Virus record (IMG/VR): IMGVR_UViG_3300017908_000245
Span: 1-30,092 of that record
Source of the DNA: a virus
Taxonomy: Duplodnaviria; Caudoviricetes
DNA: 30,092 nt
Strand: one strand, 5' to 3'
Both the position numbers and the translations under genes were made by a program. Shown piece after piece: positions 3,001 to 26,183 of the stretch; position 1 is the first letter of the stretch, and every line of letters begins with the position of its first letter. Under the pieces are notes generated by a model. That model was not told the origin of the DNA. It did not search any database and worked only from the letters and a program-made list of their open reading frames with translations.

Positions 3001-6000
3001 TAATGTTACACTGTAGCACTGTGCAGTTTGTCTAAATTCTTGTTCGGTAGGACCCCAATCACCAAATACAAATGGTTTTGCTCTTTGCTGTAGGCTTGGG
3101 TGATTTCCTGGAACTAACACTTCAGCAGGATCTCTTAATGCACCTGTGTTATCTACTGGACTTTGTGTATCCCAATCCCAATAAGTTCTTGCGTAGTCAA
3201 CCTCTTGATATACCAATGTGCCTGGTTCTGATACGTTACCAGTTTTTAGTGCTTCTATTAGAGCATACCTCTTTGTAGCATCTGTCCAACTATAATGTGC
3301 ATCCCACCATGTTGGCTTGTATGGGAGACCCAACATGTGCCATGGAGTTGTATGCGGAGTAGCAGTGCCAAATAAAATATTGTAGATACCAACATAGTGA
3401 CCTGGTAGTTTTGCTACATTTAGTCTACTGTTTGATCCTAATATGAATTGAACACTATCTTTGTAATTCCATGTCCAACCTTCTGGATCTGTTTCGTCAT
3501 AAATTAATTCTTCTATTACAACATCTTTGTTATTTGCTCTTGCCCATTTTGCATAGTAAGTGTATACATAATCATCTAATTGATCTAATGTATACCATGT
3601 GTATCTGTGTTGACTAGGCATAAACTTGTCAATTGTTTTGTAGTTGGTGTTTCTTTCATACAGGCTATCCTGCTTGACTAAGCCAGCATAAATCATACAC
3701 TCTAATTCGTATTGAGCAGCATTTACAATATCAAAGTATTGGCTGTTCATATCATGTAAATCATAGTTAGATGCTAATGGATATTTTCTATTATCGTGTG
3801 TAACTAAATGTTGATCTACAACTTGAGGCTGTTGTCCTAGTTGTAAGCCTAACTTTACCATGCTTTGTGGAACATAGCTACTATTATCCATTTTATAAAA
3901 ATCAATGTCAAGTGAAGGATATTCACCATTTGCACCAATTACTGGTGTTACTAGTAGAGTAACTTTATTTCCGTTGATTGTATATTCTTTATCTTTGACA
4001 AGTATTCTACGTGTCATATTATTATTAATATTTTCTGTTAACCATACATAAACATGATCTCTAATATTCATGTCGCCGTTTGCAGATTTGTCAATTACAA
4101 ATTCTGTTTGACTGTTATCAATTGTGTAAAGATTTGTAATTGGTTCTACTGTGTAAAGCATGTTGCTTGTTTTGTAAAGATCTGTGCCTTTTTTATTTGC
4201 AAGCAGAACAGCTAATGCCTTATTAACAATTTCCTGTATTGATGTTGAACTGTTGCTTGCATACAAACGTTTTACTTGATTTCTAAATCTAACAATAAAC
4301 GCATCATAATCTTGGCCTTGTTCATAAATTGCGCCAGTGATACTTTTTGTTTTGTCTATGTATTGAACATCATGCATGATACCACTGTCGTTGTTCAACA
4401 TAATCTTACCACCGTAATTTGACAGTCTTTGAATTGAGCTAAAGTTATTTTTGCCAAATACATTGCCTTCAAATCCTGGCATTGCAAGCATCATGTCTTT
4501 CCAATGTGATGCTGTTTCGCTTAATGTAAATATATCAAATGTTTCATTTAAACTATTTGATTGCCATAACGTAGGCAAACTTGCATTGCTGGTTTGATTA
4601 TTTGTATCAATGTTAAGGTATTCTAAATCAACAATGTCACCTACATTATAGTTTGCCTGATTGATTGTTATGTTGTCGCTGTTTATTGTTACAGAGTTAG
4701 CAACAGTATTTTTTCCATTTACTGTAAGTCTATGAAAATGATTATCAACACTTGCAACACTTGTAATTTTAAATACTGCATCTGTGCCTATTGTTACTGT
4801 GTCTGTTGACAAAGATGACAATGACTTTGTTTCCAAAGGTTGAATAGTTTCGCTATTGTTTGCTAGCACCAATGCTTGATCAAGCAAGTTTGTAATTTTA
4901 ATAGTTGATTTTGTATCTACAAGTATACCATCTTTAAACTTGTCTACATTTTTATAAATGCCAGTGCCTTGCTCTGTAATTTCTTTAATATTGATTACAC
5001 CGTCTAGTATACAAACTACATACTCAAATGTTGGTGTAAAATTATCATAGCCTACAGGAATTACAAGAGTGTTGTTTGTGTCTGTAATTGTGTATTGCAA
5101 ATGTTCCCATGCACCCAATGTAATATCACTTGTTTTATAAAGGGTTGTTAGAATATCATCAACTTTAAAATAATTGTAACCTCTTCCTTTATATTGGTAG
5201 CTAAGTTTACTGTCTATGTCGTCTGTGATAATAAAGTCTTGTTTGTATTTGTTACTGTGATTTATAAACTCAATTTCTGCGCCATTTGCTGTGTCTCTAT
5301 AAGATAGTTTTTTACCTAAGATAGGATCAACATGTGTATCGCCGCCTTTGTAGCCAAATATTTTATTACCAAAAAACTCACTGTCAAACTCGCTTACTTC
5401 ACTGCCTTCTGAAGTATAAAGTTTAAACATTGGCTCTTGGTGTGCAAATTTTTTTGCTTGGCTTTTTTCTAGTAAACCATTTTCAAAATATACATCAGCT
5501 TTTTGATATTTTTTTAAATCTGCAAATGGTGTAAAGTCAATGAATGCACAATGACCATCTTGTAATAGTTTTTCTTCTACTAGAATATTACCTGCTGTCA
5601 TTTTATAAAGGTGTGTTGTATATACATCTGCAAATAAAACATAGCTGTGTTCTGGGATATTACTATCAAGTGGCATAATCAAATCGTTACCGCTTGGTAT
5701 TGGAAGATAATCGCCCTCTGGCTTGATATAAAAATCTACGTGTCCTAACCAATGATAGTCTAATGAACTGTCATAATCACATGCATCAAACATATTCATG
5801 TTTGATTGGAATTCTATGATACTTCTCTTTGCTTGCAACTCTGCATTGATGTATTGTGTTAAATCAAGGTGAGGCATAAGTTGTTTATACGTGTTAATAC
5901 AATCAACATGAACCCATGCATTAATTCTAGAAAATGCTGTGTGTCTACTGTCATCTCTTGCAATTACAATGTAATCTGGTGATGTTTCAATAAGTGCTTC

Positions 6001-10629: not shown

Positions 10630-11172
10630 TTATGAAGTTAATTTTATCAGTTCTTGGGGCCAATTTAGGAAGTATTGCCAGCCCTCATCCGGCACAGTAA
10701 GTGGATAATACTTGCTACTGTTGTTGATTTGATGCCATGTAGGCTTGTAAGGTGTGTTAATTGGTTTGATTAACTTGCTACCTTTTTTAACATTGCACGG
10801 TCCACATGCTGATACTGTGTTTGTCCAGCCTAGTTTACCACCTTTTGATTTAGGAATTACATGGTCAAGTGTTAAATCATCATAGCCAAAATTATCGCCG
10901 CAGTATTGACATTGATAATCATCTCTTATGTAAACATTGCGGCGTGTAAATTTTGCTTGTGAGGGTTGTCTGTGATATGTGTTGAGCATTACCACACTGG
11001 GCATGGGTATGCTGAGATTTGCGGATCGCAAAAATCTACCTTCGTAGTTGCGTATGACATGAATTTTTTCTGCAAACATCGCCTTAACGGCATTCTGCCA
11101 ACTGATTGTGCTCAGTGGGAGATAACTCAATGGTTGTGCGTCTGCATTTAAGAGTAATACGCTGGTATGCAA
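10630..11172 (-). CDS. HNH endonuclease (McrA/HNH_5-like, Zn-binding)
   Basis: CQYCG...LTLDHVIPKSKGG...NTVSACGPCNVKKG; N-terminal VLLLNAD..PL; TTG start with a GAGG RBS upstream. Confidence 0.9.
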   Translation of the reverse strand: MHTSVLLLNADAQPLSYLPLSTISWQNAVKAMFAEKIHVIRNYEGRFLRSANLSIPMPSVVMLNTYHRQPSQAKFTRRNVYIRDDYQCQYCGDNFGYDDLTLDHVIPKSKGGKLGWTNTVSACGPCNVKKGSKLIKPINTPYKPTWHQINNSSKYYPLTVPDEGWQYFLNWPQELIKLTS

Positions 11173-17568: not shown

Positions 17569-17576
17569 TATTTATG
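17569..17576 (-). promoter_or_regulatory. T4-type late promoter (CATAAATA) heading the baseplate operon
   Basis: Minus strand reads CATAAATA-CTACT-GGAGA-AATGCT-ATG. Confidence 0.72.
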
Positions 17577-17591
17577 CAATTAAAAAACCGG

Positions 17592-17621
17592 TTGACTTAC
17601 AATGGGTTATCACCATATAAT
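17592..17621 (+). promoter_or_regulatory. Sigma70-type early/middle promoter
   Basis: TTGACT (17592-17597), 18-nt spacer, TATAAT (17616-17621); AGGAG RBS at 17631-17635 before ATG 17643. Confidence 0.78.
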
Positions 17622-17642
17622 GCTGCACATAGGAGTATAATA

Positions 17643-18506
17643 ATGACCAAAACGAGGCAACACTACTTAACAAACAAAGACCTGTTGCGTGAAATCCACA
17701 ATAGTAAAATGACTTATTGTTGGACACGCGACGAAGAATACAATCATTATGATTTAATTATTAATTCGTTTGACGAAATCAACGAAGACAGTATTTTTAC
17801 AGCAAAACAAAACAGAGCAAAAAGATTACAAAAACTAGCACACGAAGCTGAAGTAAGACGTTGGGAACAAGGACTTACTGGTAAAAAAACAAAGCCGCGT
17901 GGTGCAGATTTTGCAGTTGACTTGGATGACATTGCAGACGAGGATCTTGTATTCCGTGTAATGACATTTGAACACATTCCCGAAGAGCAACGCAAAAACA
18001 AACCAAAAACAGAAGCAGATCATCACTCAAAGTGCAACTTCCCTCCTTTCAAACATTATGCTAAGATCGAAGGAGATTGGGAAGAAGTAGCACGTAGTCA
18101 CTGGACAGGTGGACGAGACAATGGTTACTTTAGCACAGATCATGGCAACACTACTCCTGCACTCGCACGTGCTTACATTAAACTATGTGAGCGTTATAGC
18201 ATGCGAGCTAACTGGCGTGGATACACTTATGTAGATGAAATGCGTGGACAGGCATTGTTACAATTGTCACAAATTGGTTTGCAATTCAACGAAGCTAAAA
18301 GTGAAAATCCATTTGCTTATTATACTGCGGCTATCAACAACTCATTTACACGTGTTCTCAATTTAGAAAAGCGTAGTCAAAATATCCGTGATGATTTGCT
18401 TGAAGAAGGTGGATTAAATCCTTCAAGCACAAGAACATTCAATGCAGAGTGGGAAGCTCAGCAAGAACAACTCAAAAAAGAACAAGCAGAAAAAACTGGA
18501 GAGTAA
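17643..18506 (+). CDS. Late-transcription sigma factor, T4 gp55-like
   Basis: HYLTNKDLLREI N-terminus and NWRGYTYVDEM...FNEAKSENPFAYYTAAINNSF C-terminal block match the gp55 pattern. Start revised to ATG 17643 (RBS and promoter); 287 aa. Confidence 0.88.
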   Translation: MTKTRQHYLTNKDLLREIHNSKMTYCWTRDEEYNHYDLIINSFDEINEDSIFTAKQNRAKRLQKLAHEAEVRRWEQGLTGKKTKPRGADFAVDLDDIADEDLVFRVMTFEHIPEEQRKNKPKTEADHHSKCNFPPFKHYAKIEGDWEEVARSHWTGGRDNGYFSTDHGNTTPALARAYIKLCERYSMRANWRGYTYVDEMRGQALLQLSQIGLQFNEAKSENPFAYYTAAINNSFTRVLNLEKRSQNIRDDLLEEGGLNPSSTRTFNAEWEAQQEQLKKEQAEKTGE

Positions 18507-18508
18507 AT

Positions 18509-19528
18509 TTGTTTGATAAAGCTGTCATATTCACTGACATTCATTTCGGCATGAAAAACAACAGCAGATTACACAATCAAGACTGTGAAGATTTTTTGAT
18601 ATGGATGATTGGTGAAGCGCACAAGCGCGGTATTAAAAAATGTATCTTTATGGGTGACTGGCACCACAACAGAGCCAGCATCAATGTAAGCACACTGAAC
18701 TATACTGTAAGTAACTTACAACGACTAAATGATGCATTTGACGAAGTTCACATGCTAACAGGAAATCACGATTTATATTATCGTGAGAAGCGTGAGATTC
18801 ATAGTATTCCTATGACAAAACAATTTCCTAAGATTAATATTGTCAATGATGAAATGTATGTTGATGACAATGTTGCACTGATTCCGTGGTTGGTAGATGA
18901 CGAGTGGAAACGTTTGCGTGAAATAGAATGCAAATATATGTTTGGCCATTTTGAACTCCCAACATTTTACATGAACGCACTTGTTCAGATGCCAGACCAC
19001 GGAGGTTTAAAAGCAGAAGACTTGAGCAAACCTGAGAAAGTGTTTACAGGACATTTTCACAAGCGTCAAGAAAAAGGCAATGTAATTTATACAGGTAATG
19101 CATTTGCACACAACTATGCTGATGCATGGGACGATGAACGTGGGTGCATGTTTATGGACTGGAAAGGCGACATGGAATTTGTTGCTTGGCCAGATGCACC
19201 AAAGTATCGCACAATCAGTTTGAGTAGATTGATTGACGATCCTGCAAAATACTTGGGTGAAAAAACTTATTGTCGTGTTACACTTGATGTTGGTATCACA
19301 TATGAAGAAGCAAACTTTATCAAAGAAACTTTTGCACAACAATTTAACCTGCGTGAGATTGCACTCATGCCAAGCAAGAAAGAAGAACATGCGCAAGACT
19401 GGAACAAGGGTGTAGAAATAGAAGTTGAAAACGTAGACAGTATTGTAATGACACAACTTGATTCAATACAAAGTGAAACAATCAAAAAAGAAATGTTAGT
19501 TGACATTTATAGAGGACTTACGTTATAG
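18509..19528 (+). CDS. Recombination endonuclease subunit, gp47/Mre11/SbcD-like
   Basis: Metallophosphoesterase motifs FTDIHFG, MGDWHH, GNHD, GHFE, GHFH; TTG start at 18509 after a GGAGAG RBS. Confidence 0.93.
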   Translation: MFDKAVIFTDIHFGMKNNSRLHNQDCEDFLIWMIGEAHKRGIKKCIFMGDWHHNRASINVSTLNYTVSNLQRLNDAFDEVHMLTGNHDLYYREKREIHSIPMTKQFPKINIVNDEMYVDDNVALIPWLVDDEWKRLREIECKYMFGHFELPTFYMNALVQMPDHGGLKAEDLSKPEKVFTGHFHKRQEKGNVIYTGNAFAHNYADAWDDERGCMFMDWKGDMEFVAWPDAPKYRTISLSRLIDDPAKYLGEKTYCRVTLDVGITYEEANFIKETFAQQFNLREIALMPSKKEEHAQDWNKGVEIEVENVDSIVMTQLDSIQSETIKKEMLVDIYRGLTL

Positions 19529-19535
19529 TAACAAC

Positions 19536-21308
19536 ATGCTTATTATTAAAAATATTACAGTAAAAAACTTTATGAGCGTAGGCAATGTTACACAGGCAGT
19601 AACATTTGATCATGCTGGTTTAACATTGGTGTTAGGAAACAACTTAGACTTGGGCGGTGATGGATCACGTAATGGCACAGGCAAAACAACAATTGTAAAT
19701 GCACTTAGCTATGCATTATACGGCAATGCGCTTTACAACATCAAAAAAGATAACCTTGTTAATAAAACAAACAACAAAGGTATGATGGTTACTGTTGAAT
19801 TTGAAAAAGATGGACAACAGTATCGTATTGAACGTGGACGCAAGCCAAACATTTTTCGTTTCATTGTAAATGAAGCAGATGCTACAGATGGAACAGATGA
19901 ATCACAAGGTGAAGGTAGACAAACACAACAAGTGATTGAACGTGTGCTTGGTATGAGTCATACCATGTTCAAACATATCTGTGCGCTAAACACCTATACT
20001 GAACCTTTTTTAAGTATGCGAGCAAATGATCAACGTGAGTTGATTGAACAGCTACTTGGTATTACACAACTGTCTGAAAAAGCTGATATCCTTAAAGAAC
20101 TTGTAAAAATAACACGTGATAAAATACAAGAAGAAACATTTCGTATCAGTGCAGTAGAAGAAGCAAACGAACGTATTAACAAAAGTATCTCAGATTTGCA
20201 ACGTAGACAACGTGTATGGGGCACAAATAAAGAAGATAAAATAAAACAACTAAAGAGCGAATTGCTTGCACTAGAGCATATTGACATTGATGCAGAGCTA
20301 AAAGCACATGCAGATTTTGAAGATTTTAATGGTAAAAAAAGTCAAATAGACACTTTAAATGCAGAAATAGCAAGACTTACAAGTGCAGTTGACAGAGAAC
20401 AAAAACGTTTAAACAAAGCACAAACCGATCTCAACGCTACATTAGAACATAAGTGTTATGCTTGTGGACAAGAGCTACATGATGAAAAACATGCAGAAAT
20501 TGTAGCTACAAAAACAGAAGCAGTTAACGAAAGTCAATCTCACATTGACGAAGATAACAGCAAAATAGAAGATTATAAAAGCGCACTAGCAGAGCTAGGA
20601 GAGCTTGGTGATGCACCACGCACAGAGTATAATACACTACAAGAAGCGTATGAGCATCAAAATAAACTGAGCACGTTGCGCACAAACATTGAGAATGCAG
20701 AAGAAGAATCAGACCCATACAGCGAACAGATTGAAGCACTACAAGAAACAGGACTTCAACCCGTAGAATGGTCGGAGGTAAATAGACTTACCGAACTCAA
20801 AGAACATCAAGATTTTCTATTGAAACTACTAACAAACAAAGATAGTTTTATTCGTAAGAAAATTATTGAACAGAATTTGCAGTTCCTAAACACTCGCCTA
20901 GAATACTATATTACAAGACTAGGTTTACCACATGAGGTTCAATTTCAGAGCGATTTAACAGTAACAATTACACAACTTGGACAGGACTTGGATTTTGATA
21001 ATCTAAGCCGAGGTGAACGTAATCGACTTATTCTAGGATTAAGCTGGAGCTTCCGCGATGTGTTTGAAAGTATGAATCACCCCATCAATCTCGTCTGTAT
21101 TGACGAACTGGTTGATAGTGGGATGGATACTATAGGTGTTGAAAGCGCACTTGGTATTTTGAAAAAGATGGAACGTGACCGTAACAAAAACATTTTGCTA
21201 ATCTCACACAGAGATGAACTTGTTGGTCGTGTAAACAATGTATTACAAGTTACCAAAGAGAATGGCTTTACAACATTTAATACAGAAGTAGAAATTGTAG
21301 ATGCCTAA
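19536..21308 (+). CDS. Recombination ATPase subunit, gp46/Rad50/SbcC-like
   Basis: KNFMSVGN, Walker A RNGTGKT, coiled coil with CYAC zinc hook, signature LSRGE, Walker B VCIDE, LISH H-loop; start ATG 19536. Confidence 0.95.
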   Translation: MLIIKNITVKNFMSVGNVTQAVTFDHAGLTLVLGNNLDLGGDGSRNGTGKTTIVNALSYALYGNALYNIKKDNLVNKTNNKGMMVTVEFEKDGQQYRIERGRKPNIFRFIVNEADATDGTDESQGEGRQTQQVIERVLGMSHTMFKHICALNTYTEPFLSMRANDQRELIEQLLGITQLSEKADILKELVKITRDKIQEETFRISAVEEANERINKSISDLQRRQRVWGTNKEDKIKQLKSELLALEHIDIDAELKAHADFEDFNGKKSQIDTLNAEIARLTSAVDREQKRLNKAQTDLNATLEHKCYACGQELHDEKHAEIVATKTEAVNESQSHIDEDNSKIEDYKSALAELGELGDAPRTEYNTLQEAYEHQNKLSTLRTNIENAEEESDPYSEQIEALQETGLQPVEWSEVNRLTELKEHQDFLLKLLTNKDSFIRKKIIEQNLQFLNTRLEYYITRLGLPHEVQFQSDLTVTITQLGQDLDFDNLSRGERNRLILGLSWSFRDVFESMNHPINLVCIDELVDSGMDTIGVESALGILKKMERDRNKNILLISHRDELVGRVNNVLQVTKENGFTTFNTEVEIVDA

Positions 21309-21531
21309 GTATGAAGGTCTAGAAGACGACGATTTAATTTTAATAGATCCCGATACAGGTAAAACACTTAGAGTGCCTGCACAAAAGATTAGGAGTCTAG
21401 ACCTTGACACTGAACCATCTGACTTTAATATGAGGCATGCAGCTAATACTATTGAAGAAGATAAATTAGGCAAAGACATAATTAGTAAAATAAAGAACAA
21501 GATAGATGAGTGGAGCAAAAAGCAAAAATAA
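21301..21531 (+). CDS. Hypothetical protein (76 aa)
   Basis: ATG-start ORF overlapping the gp46 stop and the resolvase start; fills the operon gap. Confidence 0.6.
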   Translation: MPKYEGLEDDDLILIDPDTGKTLRVPAQKIRSLDLDTEPSDFNMRHAANTIEEDKLGKDIISKIKNKIDEWSKKQK

Positions 21532-22057
21532 AGGCAAAGGCTTTGAACGTGAAGTTTGTAATATACTAAGCGACATCTATGAAGACAACTTTGAGCGTGT
21601 GCCATACAGTGGTGCATTTGTTGGCGGTATCAACGCCGCACGTAAGAGCACACTTACGGAAAATCAAATCAAGGCTTTTAAAGGAGATGTAATTCCTCCA
21701 GATACATGGAATTATTTTAACTGTGAATGTAAAAATTATGCAGATTTTCCTTTTCATCAATTATTACAAGAAAAACCAATACCACTATTAGAACAATGGC
21801 TAGAACAAACATTAGATGCACATGATAAAGATGATTTGGATCTTTTGTTTATGAAATTTAACCGTAAAGGCATTTATTTGGCATTTCCAAAAAATCTGGT
21901 TGACAGATTTGAATTAAATCGTTACATATATTATACAAGTGAAGATTATGGCACATGGACAATTACATTTTGGCAAGATTTCCAGGCAATTACACATAAT
22001 ATAAGACAAATAAAAAATTTAAGCATTAACGGCACTAAAACAAACGTAATCAAGTAG
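21506..22057 (+). CDS. Holliday junction resolvase, Hjc-type PD-(D/E)xK nuclease
   Basis: SKNKGKGFEREV...RVPYSGA...GDVI...ECKNY catalytic pattern; follows gp46/47. Confidence 0.82.
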   Translation: MSGAKSKNKGKGFEREVCNILSDIYEDNFERVPYSGAFVGGINAARKSTLTENQIKAFKGDVIPPDTWNYFNCECKNYADFPFHQLLQEKPIPLLEQWLEQTLDAHDKDDLDLLFMKFNRKGIYLAFPKNLVDRFELNRYIYYTSEDYGTWTITFWQDFQAITHNIRQIKNLSINGTKTNVIK

Positions 22058-22069
22058 GCTAATAAAGGC

Positions 22070-22405
22070 ACTAGGCTCAGTTTGATCGGGGTTGCTCGAT
22101 CCACCTTGAGGTTATGCTATCAGCATGATCAGACACTGGTGTGCCGCAAGAGTCAATGCACTGGTTTGACAAACCAAAATGAGTGAGCTCTCCTGGACAA
22201 TTGGAACTCACGGGTAGCCCAGAGTCGCATACTATGGCAATGGGTGTTCCTGCGTTAGAAAAGCAGCATTTAATAGAAGTACCGCGTAACCGCTTCCCCC
22301 GAGTGCTAAATCGGGTTTGCTATAGTATGTGTGAAGGGGCGTCTAATCCAAGATTCTTCAGTTGCACCTAGCCGTGTGTAGGCTAAGTGTGACTGAAACA
22401 TCACA
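22070..22405 (+). ncRNA. Candidate large structured RNA of unrecognised family
   Basis: Non-coding island of 146/300 GC over 22081-22380 with at least 8 stems, including the 15-bp pairing 22226-22240/22317-22331 and an 11+5-bp hairpin at 22357-22397. Nearly all non-WC pairs in these stems are G-U on the plus strand (one C/A mismatch in the last hairpin). Boundaries approximate. Confidence 0.7.
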
Positions 22406-22417
22406 CCAAGCTATATC

Positions 22418-22425
22418 GATAAATA
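22418..22425 (+). promoter_or_regulatory. Late promoter-like GATAAATA
   Basis: Same ATAAATA core as the other intergenic sites; upstream of the 146-aa ORF. Confidence 0.5.
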
Positions 22426-22446
22426 TCAACATAGAAATAATTCTTT

Positions 22447-22530
22447 TCGTTTGAACGATTTAGATGATAGCGTAAGCAATTACTTCGAGTAGAGCAAAGC
22501 GATACGAAGAAGATGATGTCGTAGACATCA
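22447..22530. repeat. Cluster of short inverted repeats / mini-hairpins
   Basis: TCGT-TTGA-ACGA (22447-58), GC-GTAA-GC (22470-77), TACT-TCG-AGTA (22481-91), GC-AAA-GC (22494-500), TGATGTC-GTA-GACATCA (22514-30). Confidence 0.55.
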
Positions 22531-22545
22531 AGACATGAGACTATA

Positions 22546-22986: not shown

Positions 22987-23200
22987 ATTTACCACTCATT
23001 CTTTCTGCACGTTTGTTGAGCCTATCAACCAGTAGAACTATACTGGGTAATTCCATTTGAACAATATCCTGATAGCTGAAAGCACCGTCACTGCTGATTA
23101 CAATGTCTAGATAATTTTCTTCCAGTTTTGTGTGTTGTGTTTTGTATCTGTCAATTATTTCAGGAATTTGTTCGGGCTGACTGGTAGCTATCAGCCTGCG
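22970..23200 (-). CDS. gp51-like / tail-assembly-chaperone C-terminal ORF, probably expressed by -1 frameshift from the gp26-like gene
   Basis: Open -1 frame of 76 codons (RRLIATSQPEQIPEIIDRYKTQHTKLEENYLDIVISSDGAFSYQDIVQMELPSIVLLVDRLNKRAERMSGKSKQML*) with no ATG near its 5' end; not in the ORF track. Confidence 0.68.
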   Translation of the reverse strand, partial: RRLIATSQPEQIPEIIDRYKTQHTKLEENYLDIVISSDGAFSYQDIVQMELPSIVLLVDRLNKRAERMSGKSKQML

Positions 23201-23209
23201 AAAAAATTT
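23175..23209 (-). promoter_or_regulatory. Putative -1 programmed ribosomal frameshift signal (slippery site + stimulatory hairpin)
   Basis: mRNA reads ACA AAU UUU UUC GCA GGCUGAU-AGCUACCA-GUCAGCC: heptamers A_AAU_UUU and U_UUU_UUC, with a 7-bp stem starting 6 nt after the first heptamer. Confidence 0.65.
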
Positions 23210-24030
23210 GTTACATCAAGCTCTACTTCGGTTTCCCATTGATGTTCGCAACTTTCACATTGAACTTTGAACATGTTGTTTACACCATCGTTGCTGAGTT
23301 CATCTACTTTGCTTTTTATTTGCTCATAGTCGGCACTTGTAATATTTTGTAGCCATTCTCTGATTGTGTTTTTGTCACTAACTGCTTCGCTGTCGCTACC
23401 AGGCGTCCTTACACTATCTACACAGTTTGTAACAAGGTCTACAGTAAGTTCTGCCATTTCCACAAAAGTTTTACCAAACATTTCTTGTCTTTGTTGATCA
23501 TCCATGTTGGCGTTTTGTAAACCTTCAATCATTTTTACTTGCTTGATTTGTTGTATTTGTATAGTATTTCTATCTTCCAAGCTGTAAGGATTTAGAGTGA
23601 TTTCAAATCCATCATTGATTGTAATAACATTGCTTGGTTGTGGTCTTGACACAGCATTGTCAATGATTGCTTGACAATTGATTGCAACGTTGTTTTTGTG
23701 ACTACACTGTGGGCAGTCCACTTCTACTTCAATTTCACTGCCATAACTTGCTTGTCTAATTGCAAGCATGATTACCATTAGGTCATTGACAGGAATTTGT
23801 CTTGGGTTTGGAATATCAGGACAACAGCTTTGTATTAAACTTACACTGGCCTCACCATTAAACAACGCATCTGGTGTTTTTGTTATCAATTCGTCACGTG
23901 CAGTCATAGCGTAAACAGCTAATTCACCGTCTGCGCTAAGTTTTGGTGCTGGATCATAGTATCTACCACCACTTGGTAGGTCTATATATAGACTTGGTTT
24001 TCTGTATGCACTGATTAGGGGATTACTCAT
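23191..24030 (-). CDS. Baseplate hub assembly protein, T4 gp26-like
   Basis: YIDLPSGGRYY...VYAMTARDEL...LAIRQASYG, two CxxC motifs (CPQC, CESC), ends in NFFAG; GGAGA RBS. Confidence 0.82.
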   Translation of the reverse strand: MSNPLISAYRKPSLYIDLPSGGRYYDPAPKLSADGELAVYAMTARDELITKTPDALFNGEASVSLIQSCCPDIPNPRQIPVNDLMVIMLAIRQASYGSEIEVEVDCPQCSHKNNVAINCQAIIDNAVSRPQPSNVITINDGFEITLNPYSLEDRNTIQIQQIKQVKMIEGLQNANMDDQQRQEMFGKTFVEMAELTVDLVTNCVDSVRTPGSDSEAVSDKNTIREWLQNITSADYEQIKSKVDELSNDGVNNMFKVQCESCEHQWETEVELDVTNFFAG

Positions 24031-24095: not shown

Positions 24096-26183
24096 ATGCA
24101 AGAAATTATAAACGCAGTATATCAACAATATCCTTGGGCAAGTGAAGCCACAGCTACAGATATTGCTAACAACATTGGACGTGGACCTGCAAACAGGCGA
24201 AAAATTGCACTTGCAATTACAAATGCAGTGAATCCTGCTGGTGTTGCTGAGTTAGATAGACTGTTAAAGGGACAAATACAATCAGAAAAGAAACAAGCAA
24301 AGGCAAAAAGTGAATTTACTAGAGAAATGCAAGGTGCGCAACGTGCAGTTATGACACAGAACGTTGATGGACTGGGTGCAATGACTGGTTTGTTTGAAAA
24401 ACTTGCAGGTGCCGCATCAGAACTAGGTGTAGGTGGAGCAGCAGCAGGTGCATTTGGGAAATTAGGCGGTAGTAGAAACAAATTAATTTCTGGTTTAGGA
24501 CAAGTTGGTAGAGGCGCAACAGAAGTTGTTGGTAGCAGCTTAGGTATTGCGGCAGGAATTGGCACATTTGTTGCAGCATTTATCAACGGACAGGACAAAT
24601 TGCTTAAAACAATGATTGATATTGGTTTAGCAGACTACAATATGGAAAATATGACGCAATTGCGTAATGATGCAGCAAGTTTGGGCATGGGTTTCAACGA
24701 ATATGCAAAAGTTTTACAAGTAAGTGCTAATTTAATTGGTGCAGGACATGATTCTGCTATGCAAGGCGCGACTATTTTCAGTGAAATGGCAACTAGAGTA
24801 GCTAGAGATGAAAGTGTAGTAAAATTTGGCTATAGAACTAGCGAACTTACCATGCGATTAGCACAAACTGCTGATGCATTATACAAAAGTAATCAAATTA
24901 ATAAGTTAGATGCAGGTGCAGAAGAAAAGATACTTAGAGTTTTTCAAACTACACAAGCAATTGCACTAGGGCTAGCAACAACCACTGGTGAAAACAGATC
25001 AAAGTTACTGGATGAGTTAGAAAACCAAAGACAAGACGTAGAATTAAACACAAGTTTCCAACTTGCACAGCAACAGTTTGTTGAACAAAATGGACAACAA
25101 GCATTTGACAACTTGAGAAATGGCACACAGATGTATCTTGCTAACATTGCTAGTAGATTTGGCAAAGATAGCCCAATGTATGCTGAAATAGAGAAAACAG
25201 TCAAAGCGGCAGTATATGATATTAATTATGATCAAAATATTATGAACAACATTACACCTGAACTAGCACAAATGTTCAATGAAATAGGTGGTGGGGCACT
25301 TAATGCATTTATTGAACAAGGTAATAATTTACTTGCTGGTAACACCGACGAAGCGCAAAGTGTTGTCGATGCTAGTTCGTTGTTAGGCATACTTAGTGAT
25401 CAGTTTGATCAAGGGTTACGTAGATTTGCAAGTGTTGACCCAATCACAAATGCAGCAGCACAGGCTATGGCAGCAGCTAAAGTTGCTAATGATGCGGCTA
25501 AAGACATAAGTCTAGTAGAACTCAAAGACATGATAGATGAATCTACAGGTGCTGTTGGAGTAGCTGATGAATCTATTGTAGCTATTGATAATGCAGCTAT
25601 TGCACTTACCACAACACTAGAAGCAATTATGCCAGGTATTGATACCATGGACGGTGCGCTAGACATGGTTTATGCAACTATGGGGTTCACAGCCTCAATG
25701 ATTGATGCTTTAACAGCTATTTTAGGTATAGATGGAACAGATGCAAAGTCTCAACTTGATGATATTATGGAAGCTGTTGAAAAAGGCACAACCACTGATG
25801 CAGTAATATATCAAAGAGGTTCAAAAGAATACAATAGACAAAGCAGTTTGTTAAGATTAACACCAGACGGTGATATTACAGCAAGAAGCTATGAAAATTT
25901 TATCAATACAACAAGAACATTTATGTCTGATAGTGCTATTGGTAGTGCAGACAGAGACACATTAACTGATAGAGTATCATCACTAACGGAAATGAAAGCC
26001 GAAGTTAATAATAGACTAGCCAATAGAGATGGTGAAAGAAATGCACAAGGTAGAATAACAGGTAGACCACTTACACAGCAAGAAATTGCCTTGTATAATC
26101 AGCAACTTAGAATTCTGGATGAACAAATTACTAAAGTTAACAAAAGAATTGCTGATCAAGAAAGTGTATTAGAGGGAGTATAA
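24096..26183 (+). CDS. Tape-measure-like protein 1 (695 aa)
   Basis: Ala/Gly/Gln-rich helical composition with a hydrophobic GIAAGIGTFVAAF stretch; paralogous to the next gene; adjacent to the gp26/gp51-like chaperone. Confidence 0.65.
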   Translation: MQEIINAVYQQYPWASEATATDIANNIGRGPANRRKIALAITNAVNPAGVAELDRLLKGQIQSEKKQAKAKSEFTREMQGAQRAVMTQNVDGLGAMTGLFEKLAGAASELGVGGAAAGAFGKLGGSRNKLISGLGQVGRGATEVVGSSLGIAAGIGTFVAAFINGQDKLLKTMIDIGLADYNMENMTQLRNDAASLGMGFNEYAKVLQVSANLIGAGHDSAMQGATIFSEMATRVARDESVVKFGYRTSELTMRLAQTADALYKSNQINKLDAGAEEKILRVFQTTQAIALGLATTTGENRSKLLDELENQRQDVELNTSFQLAQQQFVEQNGQQAFDNLRNGTQMYLANIASRFGKDSPMYAEIEKTVKAAVYDINYDQNIMNNITPELAQMFNEIGGGALNAFIEQGNNLLAGNTDEAQSVVDASSLLGILSDQFDQGLRRFASVDPITNAAAQAMAAAKVANDAAKDISLVELKDMIDESTGAVGVADESIVAIDNAAIALTTTLEAIMPGIDTMDGALDMVYATMGFTASMIDALTAILGIDGTDAKSQLDDIMEAVEKGTTTDAVIYQRGSKEYNRQSSLLRLTPDGDITARSYENFINTTRTFMSDSAIGSADRDTLTDRVSSLTEMKAEVNNRLANRDGERNAQGRITGRPLTQQEIALYNQQLRILDEQITKVNKRIADQESVLEGV

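Follow-up and report, generated by a model that had tools for sequence, protein, structure and literature searches.

An intergenic gap in a viral DNA of 30,092 nucleotides (the whole stretch analyzed, called here the window) encodes a conserved plus-strand noncoding RNA (ncRNA) that, as judged from covariation, is doubly pseudoknotted, and this RNA represents a real, uncatalogued class that model searches set apart from Rfam families. By analogy with known replication systems, we give slightly better than an even chance to the reading in which the RNA, the AT-rich spacer that follows it and the hairpins beyond form the primer module of a transcript-primed replication origin in Rak2-like jumbo phages. 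The window is a 30-kb fragment with an estimated completeness of 8%, and the nearest cultured counterparts of its genes (gp55, gp47, gp46, a RusA-like resolvase, gp26 and portal) are those of PA5oct, Phosso and Rak2-like jumbo phages. The gap (22058-22545) is its longest between main ORFs, with 488 nt versus 204 nt for the second longest, and the RNA part (the first 337 nt of the gap) has a GC content of 49% versus 36% for the window; both values agree with the initial annotation, which had singled out the only long noncoding gap, with about 49% GC within AT-rich DNA. A 62-aa ORF inside the RNA (22183-22371) had no family match. Elsewhere in the window, baseplate genes surround an HNH endonuclease gene (10630-11172, minus strand), and two plus-strand ORFs, of 695 aa (24096-26183) and 76 aa (21301-21531), have no PHROG or Pfam match.

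Table 1. Coordinates of the RNA, its parts and the neighboring genes in the window
Feature	Position	Strand	Remarks
Late sigma gp55, gp47, gp46	17574..21308	+	Context
RusA-like PD-(D/E)XK resolvase	21506..22057	+	Context; directly before the gap
Structured ncRNA	about 22074..22410	+	Approximate ends, deduced from conservation and the 3' end mapped for PA5oct ncRNA004
5' domain	22074..22145	+	Closing stem 22074-76/22143-45, two crossing helices, hairpins 22085-22100 and 22112-22128
Linker hairpin	22162-76	+	Covariation
Hairpin PA	22183-87/22207-11 and 22191-93/22203-05	+	Covariation
Double-pseudoknot core, conserved	22212..22329	+	Same topology in 30 cultured copies
Stem PB	22212-21/22241-51	+	Core; its loop forms PK1
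Knot PK1	22230-35/22322-27	+	Core
2-bp stem	22252-53/22263-64	+	Core; its loop forms PK2 with the loop of PD
Knot PK2	22254-57/22287-90	+	Core
Helix beside PK1	22265-68/22318-21	+	Core
Hairpin PD	22276-96	+	Core; loop near-invariant
Variable hairpin	22298-315	+	Core
Direct repeat 1 (R1)	22344..22352	+	Exact match to R2 in the window limited to 5 nt (22348-52)
3' hairpin PG, between R1 and R2	22357..22397	+	95.6% paired
Direct repeat 2 (R2)	22403..22410	+	Likely RNA 3' end or RNA-DNA junction
AT-rich spacer, 25% GC	22411..22470	+	Candidate unwinding element
Two DNA-type hairpins	22471..22532	+	Second (22514-30) has a C-GTA-G triloop
Baseplate hub gp26, convergent	23191..24030	-	Constant downstream landmark

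When folding energy was compared with that of shuffled sequences, a check suggested in the initial annotation, the plus strand had a minimum free energy of -118.4 kcal/mol and a z score of -3.48, with 1 of 100 shuffles equally good; the minus strand of the same stretch gave a z score of -2.60. In an alignment of 33 relatives, 88.7% of cells were paired and both sides had changed in 38 of 56 pairs, a level of pairing that none of 500 shuffles reached and that compares with 35 to 44% for slid controls; helix 5 of this alignment (31% paired) looks misaligned or out of register and is excluded as support. All of the stems that had been proposed from the window alone are present in its sequence, and most of them, but not all, covary over the 33 relatives. 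The proposed 15-bp pseudoknot is really a 6-bp knot, PK1, with a separate 4-bp helix adjoining it: over the 33 relatives every cell with letters is paired in the PK1 core and 96% are paired in the 4-bp helix, whereas the outer pairs of the 15-bp version are kept in just 14 to 31 and its inner pairs in 5 to 28. A second pseudoknot, PK2, which had gone unnoticed, is 94.7% paired. At the 5' end, the stem suggested at 22076-80/22106-10 is kept in 5 to 12 of 12 relatives with no double change, and it gives way to two crossing helices (22081-84/22130-33 and 22102-05/22138-41) kept in 10 to 12 of 12. Nor does the feature end at 22405, as first drawn; it continues to about 22530 with the AT-rich spacer and the DNA-type hairpins. 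The loop of hairpin PA (22194-22202) covaries weakly with the 3' strand of PG (22385-22389), the pair being 22202/22385, and from this pattern a third long-range contact is possible.

The RNA is widespread among related viral loci. By eye, it comes after the resolvase in 25 of the 26 loci that a search with this protein recovered, the 26th being cut short. A 21-nt core motif matched 120 viral loci; flanks are available for 80 of the motif loci, and in 66 of these at least one of gp46, gp26, the resolvase and the next ORF is no more than 1.5 kb away. Model R1, which was built from 33 marine-type sequences, locates the RNA in the gp46-gp26 interval of 68 out of 80 viral loci anchored on gp46; 11 of the 12 loci missed end less than 830 nt past gp46 and one at 1,710 nt. 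The same model detects a freshwater group outside its training set, at 24 to 49 bits. The upstream gene differs among relatives, with the resolvase position taken by GIY-YIG-like, endonuclease VII or other genes, and a different, longer 5' domain replaces that of the window in some relatives. Two chance matches, L090 and L094, were removed from every alignment, and L102, an outlier whose score comes from the motif alone, was kept out of the group alignments and repeat counts. Putative bacterial copies were rejected: there were 4 motif matches, about the 3 to 4 expected by chance, in which only the motif itself scores. Many marine relatives (including L003, L007, L012, L034 and L050), but not the window, have short G-poor tandem repeats in 2 to 4 imperfect copies between the upstream stop codon and the RNA.

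Searches for known families returned nothing at this position. With Rfam 15, the window had 0 matches at the gathering score and a single chance match at an E value of 6.7; 20 relatives had 0 matches, and none was below an E value of 0.5 when 5 and 19 loci were searched in E-value mode. ARAGORN found 0 tRNA or tmRNA genes in the window. In the relative G001, ARAGORN called 28 clustered tRNA genes and a tmRNA flagged with an asterisk (L158:2749-15781), the latter lying elsewhere than the RNA, and a tRNA with a CUA anticodon was called at L153:12922-12997. A group I or II intron was rejected on the intergenic position of the RNA in the loci examined, the lack of an Rfam match and the lack of a joint in the contigs of eight RNA runs. 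The P4 pseudoknot of RNase P RNA is conserved in sequence, whereas PK1 is free in sequence, and RNase P RNA, likewise without an Rfam match, was set aside. Each of several look-alikes (the T-box antiterminator, RNase P J11/12, group II domain 5, the 23S L11-binding region, and the cobalamin and c-di-GMP riboswitches) depends on particular bases that here vary or pair elsewhere, and these were rejected as well. The Polynucleobacter-1 model (RF01718) had no match in the window or in sets of 20 and 19 loci, and none at an E value of 10 or better in 5 genomes; in its description (PMC2864571), one row resembles by eye the alternative 5' domain of the L013/L033 type, but that RNA has only 141 positions and is without the double-knot core. 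No description of the family was found in the literature, including the available portions of PMC5333043, of Weinberg 2010 with its supplements and of a language-model preprint; nor was it found in the part of the PMC10690425 supplements covered, and pieces of this RNA may sit among unlabelled candidates in the remainder.

Large ornate RNAs, such as GOLLD, ROOL, ARRPOF and OLE, are likewise long, GC-rich, pseudoknotted molecules and often phage or plasmid borne; the RNA described here has no Rfam match to any of them. None of these RNAs is known to occur as evenly spaced, co-oriented copies with identity-covarying repeats.

Cultured jumbo phages carry elements of the same design. At the gp46-gp26 site, gaps of 0.8 to 1.5 kb without sizeable ORFs are present in GAP32, EJP2, PA5oct, Phosso and RsoM2USA; in RaK2 the gap is 365 nt and holds no copy. 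The helix order in GAP32 and EJP2 is that of the window RNA, and across 30 cultured copies PK1, PK2, the stacked helix and PD are 99 to 100% paired, with double changes in 4 to 6 pairs each; helix 1 of that alignment (43% paired) looks misaligned or out of register and is excluded as support. The marine model R1 gave no match on 17 cultured loci or on PA5oct, Phosso, RsoM2USA, SCTP-2 and Atu_ph07, and direct blastn of the window RNA against cultured phages gave none either. Model R2, built from the cultured core, has no match on the window RNA and matches in register only at three freshwater loci (E values of 0.005, 0.015 and 0.09), one of which is also matched by a sequence profile (E value of 3e-5). 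Some marine and cultured loci share a downstream motif by eye. Because of the synteny, the identical topology and the freshwater bridge, it is likely that the window RNA and the cultured elements share descent.

One cultured relative has been seen by RNA sequencing. PMC7318152 lists PA5oct ncRNA004 at 246116-246734 on the plus strand as a transcribed region, assigning it no structure, family or function, and gives its share of phage reads as 0.08, 0.03 and 0.02% from early to late infection, compared with 1 to 5% for two other PA5oct ncRNAs. We found that 7 of 7 helices are fully paired at the expected places in ncRNA004, with the repeats and hairpin tail as in the family, and that its listed 3' end (246734) falls on the final base of its repeat 2. 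This RNA is paralogous to the element that PA5oct has at the gp46-gp26 site; it shares helix order, repeats and hairpin tail with the window RNA but is about 620 nt long, was missed by models R1 and R2, and was matched by blastn to the syntenic copy and by eye. PA5oct ncRNA001 to ncRNA003 were dismissed as copies by eye; a small hairpin in ncRNA003 (L286, about 103165-103180) also occurs in the 5' domain of L028, L038, L051 and L119. For the marine relative L010, metatranscriptome contigs of six of eight RNA runs cover the RNA, and those of X11 and X18 do not. Two contigs end at L010 positions 3902-3903, just before repeat 2, but are offset by another that runs to 3967. No joint, skip or back-joint across the RNA was seen in the contigs of the eight runs, contigs being assemblies from which rare forms drop out. 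Altogether, the covariation, the lack of an Rfam match and the transcribed cultured relative support a new class of plus-strand pseudoknotted ncRNA, much as the initial annotation had proposed. It had also placed the RNA in one transcript with gp55-47-46-resolvase; read-through of this kind is weakly supported by three L010 contigs that bridge the resolvase-RNA junction, among contigs chosen beforehand for holding the stretch, while dependence on the operon does not extend to most cultured copies, which have a promoter-like pattern of their own.

That pattern, a loose one scored without a shuffle control, precedes the cultured copy in 30 of 35 cases; directly ahead of the window copy there is no consensus promoter. 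There are 5 copies per genome in GAP32 and in EJP2, and 4 to 5 in 121Q, Munch, BF, fHe-Yen9-04 and A4, where 23 of 23 motif matches lie on one strand with 0 control matches; three were found in RaK2 and three in PA5oct, and none was recognized in Atu_ph07 or SCTP-2. For PA5oct, a match at 32 kb was dismissed as a copy by eye, and the P9 match for the copy at 12.9 kb fell on a wrong site and was not used; nor was the PG count for the cultured copies, which was out of register. All viral contigs with at least two matches are strand-uniform (14 of 14), and only one copy each was found in fragments of 192 kb and 149 kb, both partial genomes of the window's wider clade. Spacing between copies is more regular than chance would give, with a coefficient of variation of 0.16 to 0.27 (P of 0.001 to 0.026 per genome, the seven genomes being related and non-independent), although the three copies of PA5oct are unevenly spaced. 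The copies occupy matching positions across genera, and in none of 35 cases is a copy's nearest neighbor in its own genome. From these relationships, the copies are old and vertically kept, and an active mobile element was rejected on the same neighbor count together with the single strand. Early transcription in PA5oct is almost wholly one-stranded, which could by itself align the strand of the copies; as a counterpoint, the syntenic copy has neighbors on the opposite, minus strand on both sides in five phages (GAP32, EJP2, 121Q, BF and A4).

The two direct repeats that flank PG vary together. Repeat 1 of the cultured copies is repeat 2 with an A added; one position often differs (identical in 16 of 35) and the other variable positions are identical in 33 to 34 of 35, counts in which row L317 was mis-parsed and the invariant letters were fixed by the search pattern. 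Repeat columns 217/321 are identical in 30 of 30 cultured copies, compared with 0.51 expected, and columns 226/329 in 28 of 30. On a tree built without the repeats, two repeat columns change in parallel, about 7 and 5 to 6 times. When a complementary RNA column was sought within -520 to +150, the best reached only 0.84 and 0.68. Scores of a copy's own repeats versus swapped repeats were 15.2 versus 11.7 for 40 marine loci and 19.1 versus 14.9 for 14 freshwater loci; 0 of 20,000 permutations did as well and the reverse-complement control was not significant, in statistics that ignore kinship. The window's own repeats, with a 5-nt match, do no better than swapped pairs (rank 20 of 40). Copies within one genome bear different versions of the repeat. 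Identity within a copy would therefore not be imposed by a protein site common to all of them, and the simplest partner of the repeat would be the complementary DNA strand.

Downstream of repeat 2, the spacer is 62 to 83% AT in cultured copies, whose genomes are AT-rich anyway. An octamer in the window's spacer (22418-25), which we take to be late-promoter-like, may serve the next ORF. C-GNA-G loops are stable in DNA, and among 53 loci with enough sequence such triloops cap 31 of 279 downstream hairpins, compared with none of the 239 hairpins in the RNA and none of the 275 on the other strand. These strand-specific hairpins suggest that this strand becomes single-stranded DNA. A comparison of the hairpin tail with plasmids gave no significant match, the best E value being 0.4.

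A transcript-primed origin would bring together a promoter, a folded RNA matching its own template, an AT-rich spacer, single-strand hairpins and spaced, co-oriented copies, and it fits these observations. Of the two functions guessed at in the initial annotation, the replication primer is the one that has gained several indirect lines of support; the present data speak neither for nor against a ribozyme. RNA polymerase would transcribe the element, starting at a dedicated promoter for most cultured copies and probably reading through from upstream in the window, and the transcript would fold into the knotted core, a step backed by covariation. Repeat 1 of the RNA might then pair with the template strand at repeat 2, in cultured copies with a single A looping out, as the identity covariation suggests, and the resulting hybrid would hold the duplex open. 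By analogy, the RNA end at repeat 2 could prime the leading strand, directly or after RNase H cleavage, and the displaced strand could adopt its hairpin folds and recruit helicase and primase. Of five genomes or genome fragments searched for an RNase H gene, one has it, and PA5oct is also reported to carry one. GC skew in two partial genomes tracks gene direction and is uninformative on the origin. The model assigns no role to the invariant core.

Such an origin would operate in the manner of ColE1 RNA II or T4 oriF, although it belongs to neither. In ColE1, RNase H cleaves the transcript, which is then extended, and a primosome signal becomes exposed (PMC4412123, PMC3167613); the persistent hybrid of this transcript needs contact between RNA rG and template dC (PMC4412123). 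Like RNA II as described there, the element would have a promoter-driven folded transcript, a putative RNA segment pairing with template DNA and a candidate single-strand signal downstream; unlike RNA II, to which it has no sequence or Rfam similarity, it has a double pseudoknot, carries a variable repeat of 10 nt where RNA II has a stretch of G, occurs in several copies on a phage chromosome and is not known to have an antisense RNA. In T4, according to the accessible text of PMC3016281, there are at least five origins, of which oriF and oriG consist of a promoter and an AT-rich unwinding element forming an R-loop, and three lie where transcription switches strand. The element resembles oriF and oriG in belonging to T4-like phages, in having several sites per genome in cultured phages and in the putative order of promoter and AT-rich element, and its conserved copy likewise sits at a transcription-strand switch; the T4 origins, as far as that text goes, share no common sequence motif and need about 100 bp, whereas here every copy has a conserved, covarying RNA of 340 to 620 nt. 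No description of how replication starts in Rak2-like jumbo phages was found, including in the available parts of PMC13282480 and of the Sharanji paper (PMC11895373). If the origin reading is true, a structured primer RNA on a phage chromosome would join a mechanism known mainly from ColE1 plasmids, and the orphan transcript ncRNA004 would gain a function. The candidate origins mapped in cultured phages of E. coli, Salmonella, Serratia, Klebsiella and Pseudomonas make the start of replication directly testable, and even if this reading fails, there remains a double-pseudoknot RNA class, as yet uncatalogued, that spans marine, freshwater and enteric jumbo phages and is a good target for cryo-electron microscopy.

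Other readings account for parts of these data. The RNA could grip its own locus through the repeat for a different DNA job, such as marking recombination or branch resolution, packaging, organizing the chromosome or stopping transcription, which would explain the identity covariation, even spacing and one-strand bias equally well and would suit a conserved copy beside gp46/47 and often a resolvase, endonuclease VII or GIY-YIG-like gene. We consider it unlikely, since that neighbor gene varies, the other cultured copies are far from the gp46/47 operon, and the combination of promoter, AT-rich spacer and single-strand hairpins is closer to known origins. Quite unlikely, too, is a bolder form of the origin itself, a self-targeting RNA whose core would be a catalytic or docking pocket and whose repeat 1 would be an internal guide invading its own DNA at repeat 2, the RNA itself making or presenting the priming end, possibly through the looped-out A; evenly spaced, RNA-defined origins would then need no initiator protein. 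The invariant loop bases and compact knotted core, which suggest a binding or catalytic pocket, would also suit a free, trans-acting ornate RNA (a scaffold, decoy or protein partner) with extra copies raising its dosage, and PA5oct indeed makes a discrete RNA while the phages carry other RNAs, such as the tRNAs and tmRNA of G001. This reading appears decidedly unlikely to us, as it leaves the within-copy repeat identity, the even spacing and the DNA-type hairpins unexplained, and ncRNA004 is scarce (0.02 to 0.08% of phage reads versus 1 to 5% for the two other ncRNAs).

The multiple ORF-less copies, direct repeats, extra A in repeat 1 and nearby nuclease genes are reminiscent of a ribozyme or a remnant mobile element, whether self-cleaving, self-splicing or copy-out, that would have its junctions at the repeats, but the matching positions across genera, nearest relatives that are never in the same genome, the lack of an interrupted gene in the loci examined and of a skip or back-joint in the contigs of the eight RNA runs, which drop rare forms, make this very unlikely. 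A cis-regulatory leader, riboswitch or 3' stabilizer for neighboring genes would be in keeping with the switch-like 3' region and with the same-strand ORF that follows in the window; given that the next gene is the convergent gp26 in many loci and that both neighbors are on the other strand in the five phages listed above, it is highly improbable.

Several details of the cultured loci were recorded beside these results. A recurring short module is inserted in different variable stems of cultured copies (L259, L267, L274, L304 and L305). The Phosso gap (L150:2594-3995) is bordered by an RNase HI gene, and its structured part seems to lie on the gp46 strand with a C-GAA-G hairpin on the other strand, unlike other loci. 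In Atu_ph07 (L152:3001-3300), a resolvase-like frame lies beside gp26 in a region annotated as small hypothetical ORFs in other frames, and in PA5oct four tiny ORFs, gp338 to gp341, are annotated inside the syntenic RNA gap (L148:3151-3963) and may be miscalls.
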